From Candidatus Heimdallarchaeota archaeon (lineage in GTDB: Archaea > Asgardarchaeota > Heimdallarchaeia > Heimdallarchaeales > Heimdallarchaeaceae): a stretch of DNA of 64,000 nucleotides. The notes beneath the pieces were generated by a model. That model saw nothing but the letters and a program-made list of their open reading frames with translations, did no database searches and was not told the DNA's origin. Positions 33,508 through 48,875 of the stretch are shown one piece after another. The translations under genes were made by a program, and so were the position numbers. The DNA lies in assembly GCA_030603365.1 (NCBI GenBank), contig JAUVXV010000001.1:384001-448000 (forward strand), in the 5' to 3' direction. How positions within the stretch are numbered: position 1 is the stretch's first letter; each line of letters begins with the position of its first letter.

Positions 33508-34164
33508 CTAATTTTTCTTTTCTGGCTTCTGGGCTACTACCCAGATATAACCTCTTCTATCTTTTGGTCGAACTAACCTTACTTCTTTTGCTATTGAATA
33601 TATTTTCCACCCCTTAAGTGCTTGTTTAATTTCTGACATGGTGATGAATCTTAAGGGTGGTTCTGTCTTAAAATGAGGTTTAACATTTCCACCATACAGA
33701 AAGAATCCTCCTGGTTTTACAGCATCGAGTAGTTCATACATTTTTGGTAATGCATGATCAAACAAATATTGTAAGCACTGAATTGCAGACACAACATCAT
33801 AACTCTCTGGTTGTGTTTCATAGGTATCTATATCTGTAAGAAGAATTTTCATCTTCTCTCTTACACCTAATGCGGTTGCACGTTTTTCAGTAATGTCTAT
33901 AGCTGATGGTAGTATATCAATAGCTTCAACATTATATCCTAATTGAGCTAGAAAACATGCATATCTCCCATCTCCAGCTCCAAGCTCAATTGCAGTTTTT
34001 CCCTCATGTTCTTTACCTTGTGTGAAGAAAAAGAACTCTAGTAGTGCATAATGAACATAATGGGGTGGTAACTCATCGAGTTTCTCCTCTGATTGCTTCT
34101 TGTATAGATTATCCCAACCTTCCATATATTTATCGGGAATAGACGAGGGATATCTTTTTGTCAT
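33508..34164 (-). CDS. Class I SAM-dependent methyltransferase (TehB-like)
   Basis: IELGAGDGR, AIDI, VKPGG; start moved to ATG 34164 because the upstream extension overlaps the divergent gene and its promoter. Confidence 0.88.
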   Translation of the reverse strand: MTKRYPSSIPDKYMEGWDNLYKKQSEEKLDELPPHYVHYALLEFFFFTQGKEHEGKTAIELGAGDGRYACFLAQLGYNVEAIDILPSAIDITEKRATALGVREKMKILLTDIDTYETQPESYDVVSAIQCLQYLFDHALPKMYELLDAVKPGGFFLYGGNVKPHFKTEPPLRFITMSEIKQALKGWKIYSIAKEVRLVRPKDRRGYIWVVAQKPEKKN

Positions 34165-34316: not shown

Positions 34317-35999
34317 ATGAACTTAAGGAAAATCTTGATTGCAAGTGGTATAATATTATTAGTGCTTAATTTAACACCTTCTTTTTCTGAAGCGAAAGAA
34401 AGCCCTCAAACAGATTCAAGTCTAATTGTTAACCAAGAAGTGAATTTCTATTTCAATGTTACAACCATGTACACTGAAATTTCAATTCGAAGTGATGGTT
34501 CTATAGATATTTATTATTTAATTCAATTCTTTAATCATCCAAATTCCTCATATAGTGAGCCTATATGGGTTTTTGATATTGGTTTTCCAAATGTCTATTA
34601 TGATCTTGATTCTGTAAGAGCAAAAATAAATGGTACGGAAATTACAGATATTAACAAAAGTCCTTATGTTGATATAGGCGTAGAAGTGATTCTTGGTTCG
34701 TATGCCGTTCCTTTGGGATACACTGGTGTTCTAGAAGTGTGGTGTCATAATCCAATAATGGTTTATGAAGATGAAAATGAAGGCTTTGGATCTACTGTCT
34801 TTCTACAAACATGGTTTGATTTCCAATATGTTTACCATCAAACCTTTAGAACTGTTCGATTTTATTTCCCCGATGGTTTGGAAGACATAACTGTGGTGGA
34901 ACCGCGTGTTTATGATAGAGGTGATTTTACGGTATTTGAACACCCTACAGATAACGCTCTATCTTATGTTCAATTTTATTATATAGGTTATCCTGATGAT
35001 GGCTATTGGGTTGGTGTAGCTTTTCCTAAAGATTATGCAAGAATTTTCAGTTCATTCTGGCGATTGAAGGTTTTTGGAAACATTATACAGAATCCTTTTT
35101 TTACAGTCGTTATTGCTTTAATAATCCTCGGAATCATTGCTCTTAGTATCAATAAAAGAAGAAATAAGAGAAAATATCTTCCCCCATCAATCAGTTCTTT
35201 GGGCGGGGGGGTAAGAGAAGGTCTAGAGCCTTCAGAAGTAGCGATTTTACTTGAAAGACCATTAACGCAAGTAGCTTCTTTAATGTTATTTGAAATGATG
35301 GAAAAAGGGTATTTAGCTATAAAACAGACATCACCAGCTCTAAGAATGGATGTTACAATAAGTACAGAGGCTGCAAGAGAATTACCCAAATATCAAAGAA
35401 CAATAATCGGAGGGATAAAAAATAGAAATAAAGAAGATATCAAATGGGAAAAGGGTGCTTCATCTGGAGCAATTCCGCCTGAACCTGTTCATCAAGATGC
35501 AATTAAGAGTGCTTTAGTTACTCAAATTAAATCAGTTACTAAAAAGATGAAAGGATTTTCAGCTAGAAAGTCTAGAGATTATTATGAAGCAGTTATAGAT
35601 AGAGCTTGGCAGGAAATGGATAAATCCAAACCAGAATTGAAGAATGCTTTCCTATGGATAATGGTAGATGAGAAGTATGAGCAACAACTTGAGAAATCTG
35701 GTGGAAACTATTACTACCCAAGATGGTATGTGTTTAGTTACTACCTCTATGTTGGAGGACCTCGTCCAACAACTAGAGGTCATTATACAAGAATCCCCTC
35801 CCATAGAAGTATCTCACATGCAGCTCCTGTGAATACTTTTATGTCTGGATTAATTCATAAACCTCAATCTCTCCACAATTCTATAAGGAACATTACTCGA
35901 CCTCCATCAACTAGCTCAGGAAGAAGTGGTGGTGGCGGTGGCGGAGGGTGTGCATGTGCTTGTGCATGTGCTTGTGCTTGTGCAGGAGGCGGAAGATGA
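34317..35999 (+). CDS. DUF2207-like membrane protein with C-terminal G7-(CA)6-GGGR tail; candidate radical SAM substrate
   Basis: Signal peptide, ISI.SDGS extracellular domain, one TM, L.P.EVA.LL cytoplasmic domain, Cys-Ala tail. Confidence 0.82.
   Translation: MNLRKILIASGIILLVLNLTPSFSEAKESPQTDSSLIVNQEVNFYFNVTTMYTEISIRSDGSIDIYYLIQFFNHPNSSYSEPIWVFDIGFPNVYYDLDSVRAKINGTEITDINKSPYVDIGVEVILGSYAVPLGYTGVLEVWCHNPIMVYEDENEGFGSTVFLQTWFDFQYVYHQTFRTVRFYFPDGLEDITVVEPRVYDRGDFTVFEHPTDNALSYVQFYYIGYPDDGYWVGVAFPKDYARIFSSFWRLKVFGNIIQNPFFTVVIALIILGIIALSINKRRNKRKYLPPSISSLGGGVREGLEPSEVAILLERPLTQVASLMLFEMMEKGYLAIKQTSPALRMDVTISTEAARELPKYQRTIIGGIKNRNKEDIKWEKGASSGAIPPEPVHQDAIKSALVTQIKSVTKKMKGFSARKSRDYYEAVIDRAWQEMDKSKPELKNAFLWIMVDEKYEQQLEKSGGNYYYPRWYVFSYYLYVGGPRPTTRGHYTRIPSHRSISHAAPVNTFMSGLIHKPQSLHNSIRNITRPPSTSSGRSGGGGGGGCACACACACACAGGGR
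35949..35984 (+). repeat. Hexanucleotide repeat (TGTGCW)x6 encoding (Cys-Ala)6
   Basis: tgt gca tgt gct tgt gca tgt gct tgt gct tgt gca; variation only at the Ala wobble position. Confidence 0.95.
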
Positions 36000-37339
36000 T
36001 GAATTTATCAGAATTACTGAACAGATTTAGAATAACAAGAAAATCAGAGATGTTCCACCAAAGGAATCTAGATACCACTTCAAGAATGCATCTGCGGAAA
36101 GAAAGGAAAGGAAAGAGTCTTCTCTTAGTTAATGCAACCATGATTTTTCATTTAAACAAGACAGCAACAGACTTTGCTTCTCGAATCATTGATGGTAAAG
36201 ATGATGCTGAAATAATAAGAGAAATGAAAAGGAAATATCGCGTTTCAGAGGAGCAATTGAAAACAGATTTGGATGATCTAAGGAACTCCATTAACCGTCT
36301 ATTAGATGAACCTGATATTGACCCTGTTCAACACCTGTCTCAAGATGTAAGCCCTTTGCTAGAAGCATCCTTTTCGGCACCTTTGAGAATGGATCTTGCA
36401 ATTACATATAGATGTAACAACAAATGTTCAAAGTGCTATGTTGAGAATTACAGAGATGTTAGAGAATTATCAACTATTGAATGGAAAAAAGTTCTAGACA
36501 ATCTTTGGAAAATAGGCATTCCACACGTTACTTTTACTGGTGGAGAACCTACAATAAGACAAGACCTTCCAGATCTTGTTGAATATGCTGAAGATCTTGG
36601 AATAATAACTGGTTTAATTACAAATGGAAGGAAACTCAAAAATGCTAAATTAGTAAACAAACTAGTAAATGCAGGAATTGACCATTTTCAGGTAACGATT
36701 GAAAGTCATGATGCTTCAATACATGATTCAATGTGTGGTGAAAGAGGATCATGGCAAGAAACAGTTGAAGGAATAAAGAATATTGTTCCAACTCCTGTTT
36801 ATATTATGACTAACACAACCTTGACCCCTTATAATATCAAAGATATTGAAAAAACTGTCGAATTTCTTCATTCTATAGGGATTGAGAAGTTTGCAGCAAA
36901 TAGCATTATCAAATCTGGTGGAGGAAAACAAGAGGATTTAGCAATCTCTGTCGAAGAACTAGATGAAGCTCTAACGAAAATTATGAATAAAGCTTATGAA
37001 CTAGGTATGAGTTTTATTTGGTACAGTCCAACAAGATATTGCGATTTTAATCCTATAGACAAAGGATTGGGGATGAAGCAATGTTCAGCTGCTCATATAG
37101 CCATGGCTATCGAACCGGATGGGGAAGTAATACCATGTCAGAGCTATTTTGAAACTCTAGGAAACATTCTTACAACTAGATGGGGTAAAATCTGGAACCA
37201 TAAAACCTCAAGAAAATTAAGAAATATGAAATATCTTCAAGAGGAATGCTTAGATTGTCCTGAAAGAGAAGTGTGCGGTGGAGGGTGCCCATTAAATTAT
37301 GCTGCACCCATGAATATTTGTAAAACCCCATTCTCCTAA
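35996..37339 (+). CDS. Radical SAM/SPASM protein with N-terminal PqqD/RRE domain (peptide-modifying type)
   Basis: LNKTA...IIDG...II.EM...Y.V..EQL..DL RRE pattern; CNNKCSKC; FTGGEP; SPASM CSAA...DGEVIPC...CLDC.....CGGGC...C; ATGA overlap with upstream stop. Confidence 0.93.
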   Translation: MMNLSELLNRFRITRKSEMFHQRNLDTTSRMHLRKERKGKSLLLVNATMIFHLNKTATDFASRIIDGKDDAEIIREMKRKYRVSEEQLKTDLDDLRNSINRLLDEPDIDPVQHLSQDVSPLLEASFSAPLRMDLAITYRCNNKCSKCYVENYRDVRELSTIEWKKVLDNLWKIGIPHVTFTGGEPTIRQDLPDLVEYAEDLGIITGLITNGRKLKNAKLVNKLVNAGIDHFQVTIESHDASIHDSMCGERGSWQETVEGIKNIVPTPVYIMTNTTLTPYNIKDIEKTVEFLHSIGIEKFAANSIIKSGGGKQEDLAISVEELDEALTKIMNKAYELGMSFIWYSPTRYCDFNPIDKGLGMKQCSAAHIAMAIEPDGEVIPCQSYFETLGNILTTRWGKIWNHKTSRKLRNMKYLQEECLDCPEREVCGGGCPLNYAAPMNICKTPFS

Positions 37340-37358
37340 TTTTTTTCTGGTGCTCGAA

Positions 37359-38114
37359 ATGTCAAACAGAACCAAAGATGTTAACTGGGGACCAGAAATT
37401 CATGAACAATTCAAGAGACAAGCTAAATGGACTGAAGATTTTAGATCTCAAATTTATCGCCAAATAAATCTCAGGAACGCAAAGAGAGTTTTAGAAGTGG
37501 GATGTGGAACAGGCGTAATAACCAATGAACTAAAACAGAAAACTTCTGCTAAAATTACTGCAATTGATTCTGATGAAAACATGGTAGAAATAGCAGAAAA
37601 AAATGTTGTAGATGTCAAATTCTTAGCTGAAAACGTTGAAAAATTAACTATGAAAGACAATTTTTTTGATGTAATTTTGTGTCAGTATCTTTTTCTTTGG
37701 TTATCAAATCCCAAGATAGCAATAAGCGAAATGGTTAGAGTGTGTAAAAAGGGAGGACACGTTGTAGCTTTAGCAGAACCAGATTACGGAGCATGGATCG
37801 AATATCCTGAATTGAATTTAGGGGAAAAGCACATTGAATATCTCAAAAGTGAGGGCGCTGATCCATTCATGGGAAGAAAGATACTCAGTTTATTTGAAGG
37901 AGCAGGTTTACAGACTAACCTTATTACTATAGCTCAGAGCTGGAATCAAGAGAATCTTAAAAACAATATTGAAGAAGAATGGCAAAGAGTATTAGAAGCT
38001 AACTTGATTACCGAAGAAGAATATTCACGTATTATTAAAAAAGAAATGGATCTGATTAGAGAGAATCAAAGAATGATTTTTATGCCAGTTTTTTGCGCAA
38101 TTGGAAGAAAGTAG
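37359..38114 (+). CDS. Class I SAM-dependent methyltransferase
   Basis: VLEVGCGTG, AIDSD, FDVI, EMVRVCKKGG; 19 nt after the radical SAM gene. Confidence 0.9.
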   Translation: MSNRTKDVNWGPEIHEQFKRQAKWTEDFRSQIYRQINLRNAKRVLEVGCGTGVITNELKQKTSAKITAIDSDENMVEIAEKNVVDVKFLAENVEKLTMKDNFFDVILCQYLFLWLSNPKIAISEMVRVCKKGGHVVALAEPDYGAWIEYPELNLGEKHIEYLKSEGADPFMGRKILSLFEGAGLQTNLITIAQSWNQENLKNNIEEEWQRVLEANLITEEEYSRIIKKEMDLIRENQRMIFMPVFCAIGRK

Positions 38115-38136: not shown

Positions 38137-38291
38137 TGGTCGGGCTTCCGTGATTTGAACACGGGACCGCTCGGTCTCTACCGGCTGACGCCTTGATCAT
38201 TGCTCACAAGGGTGTCATATGACTACAGCCGAGAGCTCTAAGCCATTTCTCTGAGTTCACACACAATGAGACTCATCTGAGCTAAAGCCCG
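38137..38291 (-). tRNA. tRNA-Tyr(GUA) with encoded CCA and two introns (about 38246-38276 in the D-loop; 38176-38222 at 37/38)
   Basis: Minus strand: acceptor CGGGCTT/AAGCCCG with C1:G72 and A73, D-stem GCTC/GAGC, anticodon stem CTCGG/CCGAG with CT-GTA-G, T arm CCGTG-TTCAAAT-CACGG; removing 31+47 nt gives 77 nt. Confidence 0.93.
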
Positions 38292-39040: not shown

Positions 39041-39424
39041 ATGGAATTGTACGGTACAGCTGATTGGAAAACTGAAAAACATGTGCCAGTAATTGAAGTT
39101 GCTGATGTAATTAAGACAGGCGAAAAAACTCCTGTGATTGTAAGTGTAGGAAAAGAAATTACTCATCCTAACAAAACAGAGCACCATATATCTTGGATTA
39201 AGCTTATGTTTTGGCCAGAAGAAGAGAAATATCCTTATCAAATTGGTTTAGTCAATTTTGATGCTCATGGTGCCTCACTCAAGGGACCTGATTCAAGTGG
39301 AGTTTATTCTGAACCCTATGCAGTTTTTCACATAAAAACTGACAAACCAGGAAAACTAATTGCAACCTCTTACTGTAATATACACGGCTTTTGGAAATAC
39401 GAAAAAGAAGTAAAGGTAGAGTAA
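39041..39424 (+). CDS. Superoxide reductase (neelaredoxin / class II SORL)
   Basis: EKHVP, HP...EHHI.WI, YCNIHG; AGGTGA RBS. Confidence 0.93.
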   Translation: MELYGTADWKTEKHVPVIEVADVIKTGEKTPVIVSVGKEITHPNKTEHHISWIKLMFWPEEEKYPYQIGLVNFDAHGASLKGPDSSGVYSEPYAVFHIKTDKPGKLIATSYCNIHGFWKYEKEVKVE

Positions 39425-41501: not shown

Positions 41502-41562
41502 GACCTAATCTTTGCATTATGAAGTAAATGTTTATATTTTTAGAGCATGTATATTCATTACC

Positions 41563-43476
41563 TTGAATCTACATTCTAACAAGTATTATGGGTACAGAGG
41601 ACAAATTCTCATAGTTGATTTAGAGGGATCTACTGTCCAAAAAAAACCACTTGATTCGAATTATATTGAAGAATTTTTGGGAGGAAGAGGTTGGGCAATT
41701 AAATACCTCTATGATAATCTTAAACCGAATGTTGATCCACTTGGTCCTGATAATATTCTCATTGTCAGCTTGGGTCCATTAACTGGTACTCTAGCTCCTT
41801 CTTCCGCTCGTTATACAATTGCAGCAAAATCTCCTCTTACTGGAGGGATTGGTTATGCAAATTCTGGAGGTCATTTTGCACCTGAACTAGCATATGCTGG
41901 ATATGATGCCATCTTTATTCATGGTCGTGCAAAATCACCTGTATATCTCTACATCAAAGATGATGAAGTAGAGATTAAAGACGCTGAACATCTGTGGGGA
42001 AAAGATACTTGGGAAACTGATGAAATATTAAGAACAGAACATTCTGAAGATTTCCAAAGTCTTTGTATTGGACAAGGAGGTGAGAATCTTGTCAAATATG
42101 CAGCAATAATAAATAATCTTTCACGTGCTGCTGCAAGGACAGGAGTGGGAGCTGTAATGGGTTCAAAGAATCTCAAAGCTATCACTGTTAAAGGATCGGG
42201 AGCAGTTAGAGTCGCACAACCTAAAACATTCAATGCTTTGATAGATGAAACATTACAAAAAATCTATGATGATCCTGCATACCCAAGTCTTTCTTATTAT
42301 GGAACAGCTTTTCTTGTGGATTTAGCTTATATCAGTGGAGGATTAGCTACAAGAAATAATCAAACTGGTATTTTTGAGAAATATGAATCTATTTCTGCCG
42401 AAACATTTGATGAAGAATATAGAGTAAAATCTGAAAGTTGTTTTGCATGTCCAATTCATTGTGGTAAATACTCAAAGGTTGAATTTGGTAAATACGCAGG
42501 TACCAAAGGTGGAAGTCCTGAATTTGAGACAATCGTGTGTTTGGGATCGAAATGTGGTATTGGGGATTTATCTGTAATTATTAAAGCAAATGAACTTGCT
42601 AATAGATATGGTCTTGATACAATTTCTCTAGGTGATAGTATAGCTTTTGTTATGGAAGCATTCCAAAAAGGGATACTGAGTAAAGAGGATACTGATGGTA
42701 TGGAGGTCGTATGGGGGAATGATGATGCTTTGATATCCTTAATAACAAAAGTAGCTTTTAGAGAAGGGTTTGGGGATCTTCTAGCTGAGGGAACTAAAAG
42801 ACTATCTGAGAAAATAGGAAAAGGTTCTGAAGAATTTGCTCATCATATAAAGGGAATGGAACCTCCAGCTTATGATGTTAGAACAGCAAAAGCTTTTGGT
42901 TTAGGGTGGGCTACTGCAACAAGAGGTGCCGATCATTTAGCCGCTCTACCAAATTTTGAGCTCTTAGGATATGAACCTGAGAAAGGTCTTGAATGGTTTG
43001 GTTCAAAGGATGCAGTTGACCCTCTCTCCTGTAAAGGAAAACCCAAAATGGTTTATTGGCATGAGAATTTCGGTGCTGTTGTCGACTCAGCTGAGATGTG
43101 TAAATATACTTGTTTTTCAGCTTATGCTATTAAGCCAGAGGATATGTCAAAGTTTCTAATTTATGCGACAGGTTTAGATTTCTCTCCTGAAAAATTGATG
43201 TTAATTGGAGAGAGGATATACAATCTTGAACGACTATTTAATCTGAGGGAAGGAAAAGGGATGGAAGAAGATCGATTACCTTCTAGATTTACTGATGAAC
43301 CATTACCTGAAGGTCCATCTAAGGGGAATTATGTCGAGTTAGATAAAATGCTTCCTGAGTATTACAAACTAAGGCAATGGAGTACAGATACAGGTTTACC
43401 AAGCGTTGAATTATTACAATCGCTGAATCTGTTTGATGAGGCCAAAAAATATAACTTAATAGATAAGGAGGAATAA
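41563..43476 (+). CDS. aor: Aldehyde:ferredoxin oxidoreductase (W/Mo-pterin AOR family)
   Basis: LGGRG, KSPLTG, AAR.GVGAVMGSKNLKA, CFACPIHC, PEFET, GLDTIS, RGADH; TTG 41563 lies about 25 nt after TTTATATT. Confidence 0.93.
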   Translation: MNLHSNKYYGYRGQILIVDLEGSTVQKKPLDSNYIEEFLGGRGWAIKYLYDNLKPNVDPLGPDNILIVSLGPLTGTLAPSSARYTIAAKSPLTGGIGYANSGGHFAPELAYAGYDAIFIHGRAKSPVYLYIKDDEVEIKDAEHLWGKDTWETDEILRTEHSEDFQSLCIGQGGENLVKYAAIINNLSRAAARTGVGAVMGSKNLKAITVKGSGAVRVAQPKTFNALIDETLQKIYDDPAYPSLSYYGTAFLVDLAYISGGLATRNNQTGIFEKYESISAETFDEEYRVKSESCFACPIHCGKYSKVEFGKYAGTKGGSPEFETIVCLGSKCGIGDLSVIIKANELANRYGLDTISLGDSIAFVMEAFQKGILSKEDTDGMEVVWGNDDALISLITKVAFREGFGDLLAEGTKRLSEKIGKGSEEFAHHIKGMEPPAYDVRTAKAFGLGWATATRGADHLAALPNFELLGYEPEKGLEWFGSKDAVDPLSCKGKPKMVYWHENFGAVVDSAEMCKYTCFSAYAIKPEDMSKFLIYATGLDFSPEKLMLIGERIYNLERLFNLREGKGMEEDRLPSRFTDEPLPEGPSKGNYVELDKMLPEYYKLRQWSTDTGLPSVELLQSLNLFDEAKKYNLIDKEE

Positions 43477-43479
43477 AAA

Positions 43480-43980
43480 ATGGGGAAATTACAGATGAAA
43501 CGTATTTTTGTCATGGAAGATAGATGTAATGGGTGTAGAATATGCGAACTAAGATGTTCTTTTTATCATGATCAAATGTACTCTCCAACTCTTTCTAGAA
43601 TATATGTTGTCAAAAATGAAATAGAAGGATTCACAAAGCCAAAAACCTGTGTTATTTGCGGAAAATGTATCGAATCTTGCCCAGAAAATGCTATCTCAAA
43701 ATCCGAACTGACTGGAGCTATATCTATAAACGAAGATCAATGCACAGGATGCATGGAATGTGTGAAAGCCTGTCCATTTGAAGTAATGAGATTTAACCAT
43801 GCTACAAATAAAGCATTTACTTGTGATTTGTGTGATGGGGATCCTCAATGTGTTAAATACTGTCCTGAAGAAGCTTTGTTCTATACAACTTCAAAAGAGT
43901 TTTCTGATTTTAAGAAAAAAGAGAACGAAAAGAAAGCTTCTGATAAGATAAAAAAACCTCATGTGATTCCACAAGAATAA
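43480..43980 (+). CDS. Polyferredoxin (4Fe-4S) subunit partner of AOR
   Basis: CNGCRICELRC, CVICGKCIESCP, CTGCMECVKACP, CDLC..DPQCVKYCP; AGGAGG RBS. Confidence 0.93.
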   Translation: MGKLQMKRIFVMEDRCNGCRICELRCSFYHDQMYSPTLSRIYVVKNEIEGFTKPKTCVICGKCIESCPENAISKSELTGAISINEDQCTGCMECVKACPFEVMRFNHATNKAFTCDLCDGDPQCVKYCPEEALFYTTSKEFSDFKKKENEKKASDKIKKPHVIPQE

Positions 43981-45871: not shown

Positions 45872-46150
45872 TTATCCACCAGCTATCGCAGGCATTAATA
45901 CTACCATATCATCCTCATGTAATTCTGTATTGAAGCCATCTAGAAGATTGATATTACGTGCATTTACCAAAATTCTGTAAATCTTACGTATCTCTCCTTT
46001 TTCGTTGAGTAACTCTTGTTCAAGTTCGGGACCAAATTCCTTGATTAGTTTCTCTATTAGGTCTTTAATCATAGTAGCTTCATAATCAAATTGTTTCTTA
46101 CCTATTATTTGTTTAAGCCTAGCAAAAGTAACAACAACTATTTTTACCAT
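45872..46150 (-). CDS. MoaD/ThiS/SAMP ubiquitin-like sulfur carrier
   Basis: FA.L....G, ILVN, L..DD.V...PAIAGG di-glycine terminus. Confidence 0.92.
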   Translation of the reverse strand: MVKIVVVTFARLKQIIGKKQFDYEATMIKDLIEKLIKEFGPELEQELLNEKGEIRKIYRILVNARNINLLDGFNTELHEDDMVVLMPAIAGG

Positions 46151-48242: not shown

Positions 48243-48491
48243 TCAGCTGTTTGGGTATTTCTCTTTTAAAATCTGCATTGCTTCAGAAATAGTTAAACTG
48301 GCTAATTCTTTAGCAGTTTCATAATGTTCTCCACAGAACCACTCCGCATAAGGTGGGTGCCCAACAGCTCCTTTTCTTTCCATCTCTTTAATCCATTTTT
48401 TATCGCTTTTGCGTTTCTTAAAATAGATTACACCACCTTCGTCTGAATGGGGGAACCTTTTATCACAAATTGTGCAAATAGGCGGTTTCAT
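48243..48491 (-). CDS. Small hypothetical protein, putative Zn-binding
   Basis: CTIC, GHP and WFCGEH motifs; 82 aa. Confidence 0.72.
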   Translation of the reverse strand: MKPPICTICDKRFPHSDEGGVIYFKKRKSDKKWIKEMERKGAVGHPPYAEWFCGEHYETAKELASLTISEAMQILKEKYPNS

Positions 48492-48515
48492 TGCTCTTTA
48501 CCACGCACGTTATGA

Positions 48516-48875
48516 AACTTGGTCAAACTTGCCAGAGGGCGTTTAACCGTCGTTTAAGTGGATCCCCTCACGTGCGTTGAGGGGAAGAATCATGAGGATC
48601 ATGATTGAGGGAGGAAAGAAGGGAGTGCGCATGAACTCCTACGTCATTCCACCCATTGCGCGAAGTGCTGAATGGTTCAAACATTACTAACTGAGGGACA
48701 GGTGGTCACGCACCTGCGAACCATAGAAAGGTGAGTATTCACCTAGCACTACCTATATATCCGTACTTTCACATATAAACTCGTAGAAAAATGGAGGATG
48801 GGGGAAGCACCATCTCTCTCGCTTGAGAACGCAATATACGCACACTAGAAAACTTATGGCAAGATTGAGTAAGTT
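48516..48875. ncRNA. Unassigned ~360-nt structured RNA candidate (+ strand favoured by G.U pairs)
   Basis: GC-enriched intergenic block closed by a 19-nt terminal stem (48516-48534/48857-48875) containing at least 9 nested helices. Confidence 0.7.

Follow-up and report, generated by a model that had tools for sequence, protein, structure and literature searches.

The locus studied here raises the question of what a radical SAM enzyme with a fused RRE modifies when it is encoded directly behind a membrane protein and no precursor peptide is found. It lies in a window of 64,000 nucleotides (the whole stretch of DNA analysed, from a Candidatus Heimdallarchaeota archaeon; all coordinates refer to it), for which a sequence-only reading had proposed that the enzyme modifies the cytoplasmic Cys-Ala tail of the membrane protein. 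This was supported by genomic linkage, by the absence of a precursor and by the co-variation of tail type and enzyme clade; the chemistry is a proposal. The genes point to a cassette dedicated to protein modification, with a whole membrane protein, not a small peptide, as target. That the tail is covalently modified by the enzyme, through whatever chemistry, is given a probability of roughly 0.73.

Genes of the cassette

The first gene (34317..35999, + strand) encodes a single-pass membrane protein of 560 aa, the presumed substrate. The layout described earlier (signal peptide, one TM helix, Cys-Ala tail) was confirmed by the ORF and by hydropathy, which placed the signal peptide at residues 6-24 and the single TM helix at residues 260-278 (35094..35150, +; helix 260-285 in AF2). 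Since a basic stop-transfer patch directly follows this only TM helix of a protein with a signal peptide, the tail is predicted to be on the cytoplasmic side. The extracellular part is a beta-sandwich (residues ~43-240; 34443..35036, +) with the fold of the ribophorin I lumenal and M1 aminopeptidase N-terminal domains (6c26_1: Z 15.0, rmsd 3.4, 182 aligned residues; VIA-align, Foldseek also used), and the ectodomain contains no peptidase catalytic domain. The cytoplasmic helical domain (residues ~302-510; 35220..35846, +) appears weakly GOLPH3/Vps74-like; the top two structure matches, 3kn1_A (Z 6.5, 153 aligned) and 2zih_A (Z 6.0), gave middling scores with 153-163 aligned residues and an rmsd of ~4.2.

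No Pfam or NCBIfam family scored above its cut-off for the 560-aa protein, and DUF2207 and TIGR04222 gave no match to it at all. TIGR04222 weakly matched the cytoplasmic domain of 5 of 60 relatives (best E 3e-7), and one protein of the sister class described below reached 21.6 bits with PF09972 (cut-off 24.4). In an Atlas structure comparison, TM values of 0.48-0.69 to DUF2207-bearing clusters and a language-model feature score of 0.94 were obtained. The protein may be a remote relative of DUF2207/TIGR04222 proteins.

At its C-terminus lies a conserved Thr-x-Pro segment (T527 91%, P529 96%), a candidate RRE-binding leader, and after it a variable Ser/Gly linker (conservation 55%); the two span 35871..35948 (+). 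They are followed by the core-like tail (35949..35996, +), predicted to be disordered, which reads (Cys-Ala)6 and Gly-Gly-Gly-Arg and thus consists of Cys, Ala, Gly and Arg only. The (Cys-Ala)6 repeat occurs once in the 3.65-Mb source genome. Its DNA pattern was matched in 60 of 400 Asgard genomes, a reversed control pattern in none. Across an alignment of 60 proteins the final 14 residues are without variation while their synonymous codons vary freely, and (Cys-Ala)6-Gly3-Arg is kept even among homologues of only ~30% identity. A microsatellite was rejected as the cause of this conservation, because all synonymous codons are in use; a Shine-Dalgarno constraint was rejected for the same reason and because the tail is kept where the enzyme gene lies elsewhere. 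Tail-bearing ORFs are ~500-800 aa long. When the protein body alone was used as query, 116 of the best 150 matches ended in a Cys-Ala tail and most others looked truncated or frameshifted; the cytoplasmic domain alone matched 569 clusters (50% identity) at E ≤ 1e-10.

The second gene (35996..37339, +) encodes the enzyme of 447 aa. Its ATG overlaps the stop codon of the membrane protein (ATGA), and Pfam matches to PqqD/RRE (PF05402, 28.1 bits, cut-off 23.4), Radical_SAM and SPASM bear out the architecture that had been read from the sequence. It is the only PqqD/RRE match in the source genome, which has a single RRE and a single tail. An alternative GTG start at 35948, which would add a Met-Cys extension, was rejected as the tail read out of frame; alignments with relatives begin at about residue 10. 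The radical SAM CxxxCxxC motif (C140/C144/C147), the SPASM/twitch cysteines (349, 363, 381, 418, 421, 427 and 431) and the fused RRE, all features of sactipeptide and ranthipeptide enzymes, are present. The three motif cysteines and six of the SPASM cysteines are invariant in 68/68 cases, C349 in 67/68. The catalytic-site profile (Y148/T181/I208/T234/Q382/S383) is closer to StsB (Y/T/I/S/K/L; residues from PMC10288494, mapped by motif and spacing only) and SkfB (Y/T/F/S/Q/L) than to CteB or PqqE. The HMM cut-offs were missed for StsB (86, cut-off 625) and SkfB (96, cut-off 300), as well as for SbtM (TIGR04082; 70.4 bits, cut-off 350), CrpC (TIGR04463; 37.7 bits, cut-off 525), TIGR04115 (39.8 bits, cut-off 350) and TIGR04340 (72.1 bits, cut-off 400). 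A predicted complex of the enzyme with the cytoplasmic domain and tail scored 0.39 (control 0.74) and was weighed neither way.

The third gene (37359..38114, +), whose ATG lies 19 nt past the enzyme stop as described before, encodes a SAM-dependent methyltransferase of 251 aa and is conserved as part of the Cys-Ala (class I) cassette. The second methyltransferase gene noted upstream (33508-34164) is real and divergent but was rejected as part of the unit: it occurs in 14/31 family genomes, is adjacent only within the genus and is absent from bacterial cassettes. A 138-aa TM protein was rejected as a separate Cys-rich substrate in the source genome, since it occurs in only 11/31 family genomes and its Cys segment is predicted to lie outside.

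Linkage of tail and enzyme, and a second tail class

Linkage was determined on 120 tail loci from many phyla, of which 114 could be judged for the next gene. The enzyme was the next gene in 89 of these, and it was present in 29/30 tail loci with wide flanks; where it was not adjacent, all five genomes tested (5/5) encode it elsewhere. Among 400 Asgard genomes, both genes were found in 119, neither in 256 and one only in 25, and 59 of the 60 tail-positive Asgard genomes have the enzyme. In Asgard family f12, nine genomes (72-89% complete) encode the enzyme without a detectable tail or membrane protein. The cassette is not Asgard-specific: it occurs in many anaerobic archaea and bacteria, the unit ranging from Asgard archaea to Chloroflexota, Planctomycetota and Methanomassiliicoccales. 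Ornatilinea apprima (locus L058) is a cultured host.

No conserved short leader-core precursor was found nearby or genome-wide. The sequence-only reading had been staked on two genomic points, tail-enzyme linkage and the lack of a separate short precursor; the linkage is very strong, and neither point refuted the idea. In both tail classes, the conserved neighbours (neighbour clustering) include no peptidase or protease, no exporter or transporter and no alternative substrate gene. Partner genes include a 2-TM zinc-ribbon protein (63/75 loci) and a PAS-like protein, and many class I cassettes contain a catalytically dead enzyme copy, which has about three separate origins; in the source genome, neither the dead paralogue nor the zinc-ribbon partner was found.

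In the sister class (class II) the body of the protein is the same, the tail reads (Cys-His-Ser-Ala)n and the enzymes form a clade of their own (SH-aLRT 100); the enzyme adjoins in 90 of 96 loci. Tail type and enzyme clade showed 0 nearest-neighbour mismatches in 178, and the residues lining the active site are common to both enzyme classes. In both tail classes, Ala, Gly or Ser nearly always occupies positions i-1 and i+3 relative to a Cys (i-1 is Ala for 99% of class II Cys), with Gly at i+3 for the last Cys; the commonest bacterial tail contains a Cys-x-x-Cys unit that breaks the strict i+3 rule (13% of Cys). The co-variation strengthens the reading of enzyme and substrate; the match rests on few independent events, and co-inheritance alone could explain it.

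Proposed modification and its alternatives

The proposed mechanism starts from what the genomes contain: a membrane protein whose cytoplasmic side carries a folded domain and ends in an invariant, disordered Cys-Ala tail, this protein being co-inherited with the enzyme and the methyltransferase. The RRE would dock on a leader-like stretch shortly before the tail, with residues ~519-531 as the candidate, the 5'-deoxyadenosyl radical would take H from the C-alpha of a small residue (Ala or Gly), and a tail thiol would be bound by an auxiliary Fe-S cluster. Cys-S-C thioether rings could then form, most simply from Cys(i) to the i+3 or the neighbouring i-1 residue. Precedents are the i to i+3 sactionines of streptosactin (PMC8172795), the thioethers in four-residue motifs of the CrpA protein (PMC13692751) and the thiomorpholine between neighbouring residues of enteropeptins (PMC12395415). 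The methyltransferase may subsequently methylate the tail, and the product would remain attached as a rigid, ligand-bearing appendage of a receptor-like protein, with part of the class I Cys or class II His residues possibly left free for metal binding. Such Cys-to-Ala/Gly thioethers on the intact protein are the likeliest chemistry, held at slightly less than even odds. The open site of auxiliary cluster I might be occupied by the nearly invariant C349; thiol capture would then be a poorer fit than Cys oxidation. Tentatively, the family may be an unnamed, widespread group of receptor-like proteins that cross the membrane once and combine an ectodomain like that of ribophorin with a cytoplasmic domain like GOLPH3, the intact protein receiving an enzyme-built macrocyclic or heterocyclic metal-binding tail, with two tail codes each read by its own radical-SAM clade and a pseudo-enzyme partner that evolved repeatedly.

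It is unlikely that the tail stays unmodified and binds a metal or Fe-S cluster, with the enzyme acting on another substrate (small molecule, cofactor or lipid) or loading a cluster and the genes linked as one complex. Cys/His repeats are typical metal ligands, and the Cys-x-Cys and Cys-x3-Cys/His repeats could be conserved as such; the zinc-ribbon and PAS-like partners, the nine genomes with an enzyme and no tail, and the retention of dead enzyme copies, by which the enzyme fold should also have a non-catalytic job, fit this as well. However, a fused RRE is a mark of enzymes that act on peptides or proteins, the enzyme clade changes exactly with the tail type, no other substrate gene is conserved, and the strict Ala/Gly around Cys and the invariant terminal Gly-Gly would exceed the needs of metal binding. 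Alternate Ala could also be converted to D-Ala in a proteusin-like L/D alternation, as RRE-rSAM epimerases are known and the tail alternates strictly every two residues; this is very unlikely, since it leaves the invariant Cys and the period-4 sister class unexplained and no epimerase family was among the 25 best NCBIfam matches.

If each Ala-Cys, the unit common to both tail classes, were oxidised to a 5-thiooxazole as by SbtM, the tail would become a poly-thiooxazole that chelates metal. This would parallel, without a need for oxygen, the modification by MNIO enzymes that has been proposed for TIGR04222 membrane proteins at their Cys-rich tails (PMC12452194). SbtM performs this type of oxidation at Gly-Cys (PMC9204691) and family members weakly match TIGR04222, but the SbtM model was missed by far, the catalytic site is sactisynthase-like and this reading gives no reason for the invariant Gly three residues after the last Cys, which makes it quite unlikely. 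Less likely again is release of the modified tail as a free RiPP with the membrane protein as a giant leader, the weaker branch of the sequence-only reading. The Gly-rich linker looks like a cleavage site and the streptosactin core likewise has a Cys-x-x-Gly ring near its end; against release, no protease or exporter is conserved, the linker is poorly conserved, and all members retain both folded parts, the ectodomain and the cytoplasmic domain.

Comparison with known systems

RiPP-type radical SAM chemistry on whole proteins is known from few tested cases (QhpC, CrpA), and in the searchable literature no case on an integral membrane protein was found. Searches for the tail motifs, for DUF2207 with radical SAM and for Asgard RiPPs returned no description (most subscription papers lay outside the search). 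The cassette could bring to light a new crosslink pattern and, in anaerobes, a new type of membrane protein for sensing or handling metals. With a presumed substrate of 16 residues, two tail classes with two enzyme clades as a natural substrate swap, a naturally dead paralogue and a cultured host, the system is directly testable.

The enzyme shares its domain order and similar catalytic-site residues with StsB, SkfB and GggB, and the tail resembles the Cys-x-Cys-x-Cys core of StsA, the streptosactin rings joining Cys to Gly/Ser at i+3; unlike here, these sactisynthases use short precursor peptides (StsA, SkfA, streptosactin) with proteases or exporters. The CXXX-repeat (TIGR04115/TIGR04117) and ACGX (TIGR04340) systems of Haft likewise have regular Cys with small flanking residues beside an rSAM-SPASM enzyme, but their substrates are short free peptides. 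The TIGR04222/MNIO proteins (PMC12452194) and DUF2207 proteins also combine a membrane protein, a Gly/Ser linker and a Cys-rich C-terminal tail of proposed enzymatic modification. The present family appears to share with them a weak homology in the cytoplasmic domain, below HMM cut-offs; the TIGR04222/MNIO enzyme class is another, the tails are variable and predicted to be periplasmic, and modification is a proposal there, too. In QhpD/QhpC of quinohemoprotein amine dehydrogenase (PMC7876137), an RRE-rSAM enzyme crosslinks a protein that stays a protein, but QhpC is a small exported subunit with Asp/Glu acceptors and no repeat tail. The closest precedent is CrpC/CrpA of Methanococcus voltae (TIGR04463; PMC13692751, 2026), of which the present enzyme is not a member. 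Both are archaeal RRE-rSAM-SPASM enzymes with a whole-protein partner encoded alongside and no obvious release machinery. Thioethers are installed in four-residue Cys motifs of CrpA and are predicted here; CrpA, a Cys-rich protein of 29 kDa built of repeats, has C-x-x-Q/D motifs and ranthionines, whereas the present cassette encodes a single-pass membrane protein that ends in a Cys/Ala/Gly tail of 16 residues and, unlike CrpC/CrpA, includes a methyltransferase.

Anatomy of the cassette and conservation of its tail

The C-terminus encoded by the membrane protein ORF (34317-35999, + strand, 560 aa) consists of a Ser/Gly linker followed by six Cys-Ala units and Gly-Gly-Gly-Arg; a Cys-Ala tail like this occurs only once in the genome (G000). 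The ATG of the enzyme ORF (35996-37339, + strand) overlaps the membrane-protein stop codon, a methyltransferase starts 19 nt past the enzyme ORF and a second methyltransferase lies upstream in divergent orientation. This layout, described in the sequence-only reading, was borne out by ORF reading, and for the PqqD-like RRE, rSAM and SPASM domains proposed there, matches to PqqD/RRE, Radical_SAM and SPASM were obtained. Of the genome's 29 radical SAM matches, only the window enzyme also has a PqqD match. It reached none of the NCBIfam cut-offs; the closest solved enzymes are PqqE and SkfB (each E about 1e-20). The genus of the organism includes Heimdallarchaeota AB_125 and the family Ca. Heimdallarchaeum aukensis.

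Hydropathy and an AF2 model predict that a signal peptide and a beta ectodomain precede the single TM helix, and that a helical cytoplasmic domain and a disordered tail follow it. The ectodomain matched ribophorin I and the M1 aminopeptidase N-terminal domain (Z 15.0, 182 residues). For the cytoplasmic domain, predicted separately (pTM 0.84), the top two matches were GOLPH3 and Vps74, with middling Z scores of 6.5 and 6.0. According to Atlas searches and weak HMM matches, the protein is a remote relative of DUF2207/TIGR04222, not a member. Among 72 homologues, every complete one carries the same C-terminal tail, usually with one extra Gly inserted in bacteria. Conservation is complete over the final 14 residues, compared to a column mean of 57-68% in the folded domains, and every synonymous codon is in use in the tail.

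Beyond the cassette, a probable tRNA-Tyr(GUA) gene (38137-38291, - strand) with encoded CCA and two introns (D-loop and anticodon loop) was missed by ARAGORN and Rfam. In silico excision of both introns can yield a tRNA-Tyr call, and other excisions yield other calls. By sequence motifs, further ORFs resemble desulfoferrodoxin/neelaredoxin (39041-39424), aldehyde:ferredoxin oxidoreductase with ferredoxin (41512-43980) and MoaD (45872-46150); these are not conserved cassette neighbours.

Linkage of tail and enzyme in two tail classes

A search with the tail-only DNA pattern gave at least 120 loci, treated as a sample, from Anaerolineae, Planctomycetota, Methanomassiliicoccales, Fermentibacterota, Aminicenantes, Asgard archaea and others. 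The ORF bearing the tail belonged to the same protein family in every readable case. The linkage to an RRE-rSAM-SPASM enzyme, which the sequence-only reading had put up for checking, was recovered: in 89 of the 114 loci with room for a next gene, that gene is an enzyme homologue; a homologue is present in 29/30 loci with wide flanks and was located elsewhere in all five tested genomes lacking an adjacent one. Of 400 Asgard genomes, both genes are present in 119 and absent from 256; the other 25 are discordant (protein only, 7; enzyme only, 18), and five of the 18 proved to contain a tail or fragment. The main counter-observation is nine genomes of Asgard family f12 (72-89% complete) with the enzyme, in which the putative substrate was not detected. 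Distances between the membrane proteins track those between the enzymes (rho 0.72, against at most 0.12 in 500 permutations; kin not independent), which shows co-inheritance, not co-evolution.

Distant Asgard matches share the protein body, but have a Cys-His-Ser-Ala repeat tail with the terminus Cys-Val-Ser-Gly-Gly and a more distant enzyme alongside (class II, as opposed to the Cys-Ala class I). A metagenome scan gave 120 class II loci, the tail being terminal in 119; carriers have 501-791 aa where upstream DNA suffices, and the enzyme is adjacent in 90/96 loci. In a quick, midpoint-rooted tree, a branch with SH-aLRT 100 separates the class II enzymes from the others, and for none of 178 enzymes was the nearest neighbour in the opposite tail class. 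Some class I-like proteins have hybrid tails. In class II, a 4-TM protein replaces the methyltransferase; this unnamed 324-aa protein (L267:3196-4167, + strand) follows the enzyme in 79 loci and has no Pfam match. In Asgard family f31 (L156, L157, L158, L159, L172-L175), the membrane protein of class II carries an additional extracellular domain and is divergent from the enzyme, and a metallophosphoesterase often follows.

Accessory genes

The downstream methyltransferase is present in 40/61 loci with room and, in family f5, has exactly the distribution of membrane protein and enzyme, 11 of 22 genomes being positive for all three. It stays with the enzyme in split cassettes, and the complete genome of H. 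aukensis retains it about 50 kb away. The upstream divergent methyltransferase is patchy and adjacent within the genus only. An unlinked paralogue of the cassette methyltransferase (G000:C9:130243-130965, + strand, 43% identical) occurs across most of the genus; G027, which has no cassette, also carries it. In family f12 (G092-G110), the genes for enzyme and membrane protein are not linked, and several membrane-protein genes are broken at contig ends.

A 2-TM zinc-ribbon protein is encoded upstream in 63/75 class I loci, including most bacterial cassettes. The unnamed example at L166:2841-3218 (- strand, ~125 aa) lies directly upstream of the membrane protein; its zinc ribbon is C-terminal and it ends in a conserved Pro-Lys-Trp. 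In 35/61 loci there is a second enzyme copy that retains RRE and barrel, with the CxxxCxxC motif and SPASM cysteines lost. Such dead copies form one clade in Chloroflexota, many of whose cassettes carry them (Ornatilinea apprima, L058:2121-3260, - strand; alignment A4), and occur separately in two Asgard lineages (G143 and G310). In the window's own genome, neither zinc-ribbon protein nor dead copy was found. Anaerolineae loci (L005:3868-4206, + strand, and others) encode one or two stand-alone PAS-like proteins of ~113 aa between active and dead enzyme genes. A 138-aa single-TM protein with a Cys-rich segment (L296:3786-4199, - strand; G000:C15 ~48285-48698) is genus-restricted, found in 11/31 family genomes and tandemly duplicated in two.

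Candidate chemistry and known systems

Beyond anatomy, conservation, linkage and co-variation, which are established, the tail is probably covalently modified (probability about 0.73). That a thioether is formed on the intact protein has somewhat less than even odds. The RRE would bind near residues 519-531, where T527 and P529 are conserved, and the radical would attack a small residue beside a tail Cys. Around each tail Cys (i), both classes have Ala, Gly or Ser at i-1 and i+3 with few exceptions, and Gly stands at i+3 of the last Cys. This spacing resembles the Cys31-Gly34 ring of streptosactin (PMC8172795), and the pattern from Cys to i+3 in both classes resembles the four-residue motifs of CrpA (PMC13692751). 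Alternatively, a ring with a neighbouring residue might form, as in enteropeptins (PMC12395415). The six catalytic-site residues, defined as in PMC10288494, are Y/T/I/T/Q/S in the window enzyme and Y/T/I/S/S/S in class II, in both cases a closer match to StsB and SkfB than to CteB or PqqE. With seven conserved auxiliary cysteines for eight iron sites, one site is left open, on one or the other cluster.

Conversion of the tail to thiooxazole has a precedent in SbtM (PMC9204691) and a parallel in TIGR04222/MNIO, and is rather improbable here. Release of the tail as a peptide is decidedly improbable; neither a conserved protease nor an exporter was found among cassette neighbours, and no small peptide is conserved there, in agreement with the earlier statement that no short precursor ORF can be seen near the cassette. 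Epimerisation is hardly to be expected. That the tail is an unmodified metal site is unlikely. Speculatively, four-residue rings that do not overlap might each expose one unmodified Cys (class I) or His (class II) as metal ligand; the tail of the window protein would then have about three crosslinks and keep three thiols free.

The literature search, with most subscription papers outside its coverage, found no description of the cassette. Its mode of action would resemble that of CrpC/CrpA, QhpD/QhpC and the sactisynthases, but it fails the HMM cut-offs for these systems and lacks a short precursor. Protein substrates for such enzymes already have precedent; new are the putative integral membrane protein substrate, the two tail codes and the recurrent pseudo-enzyme.
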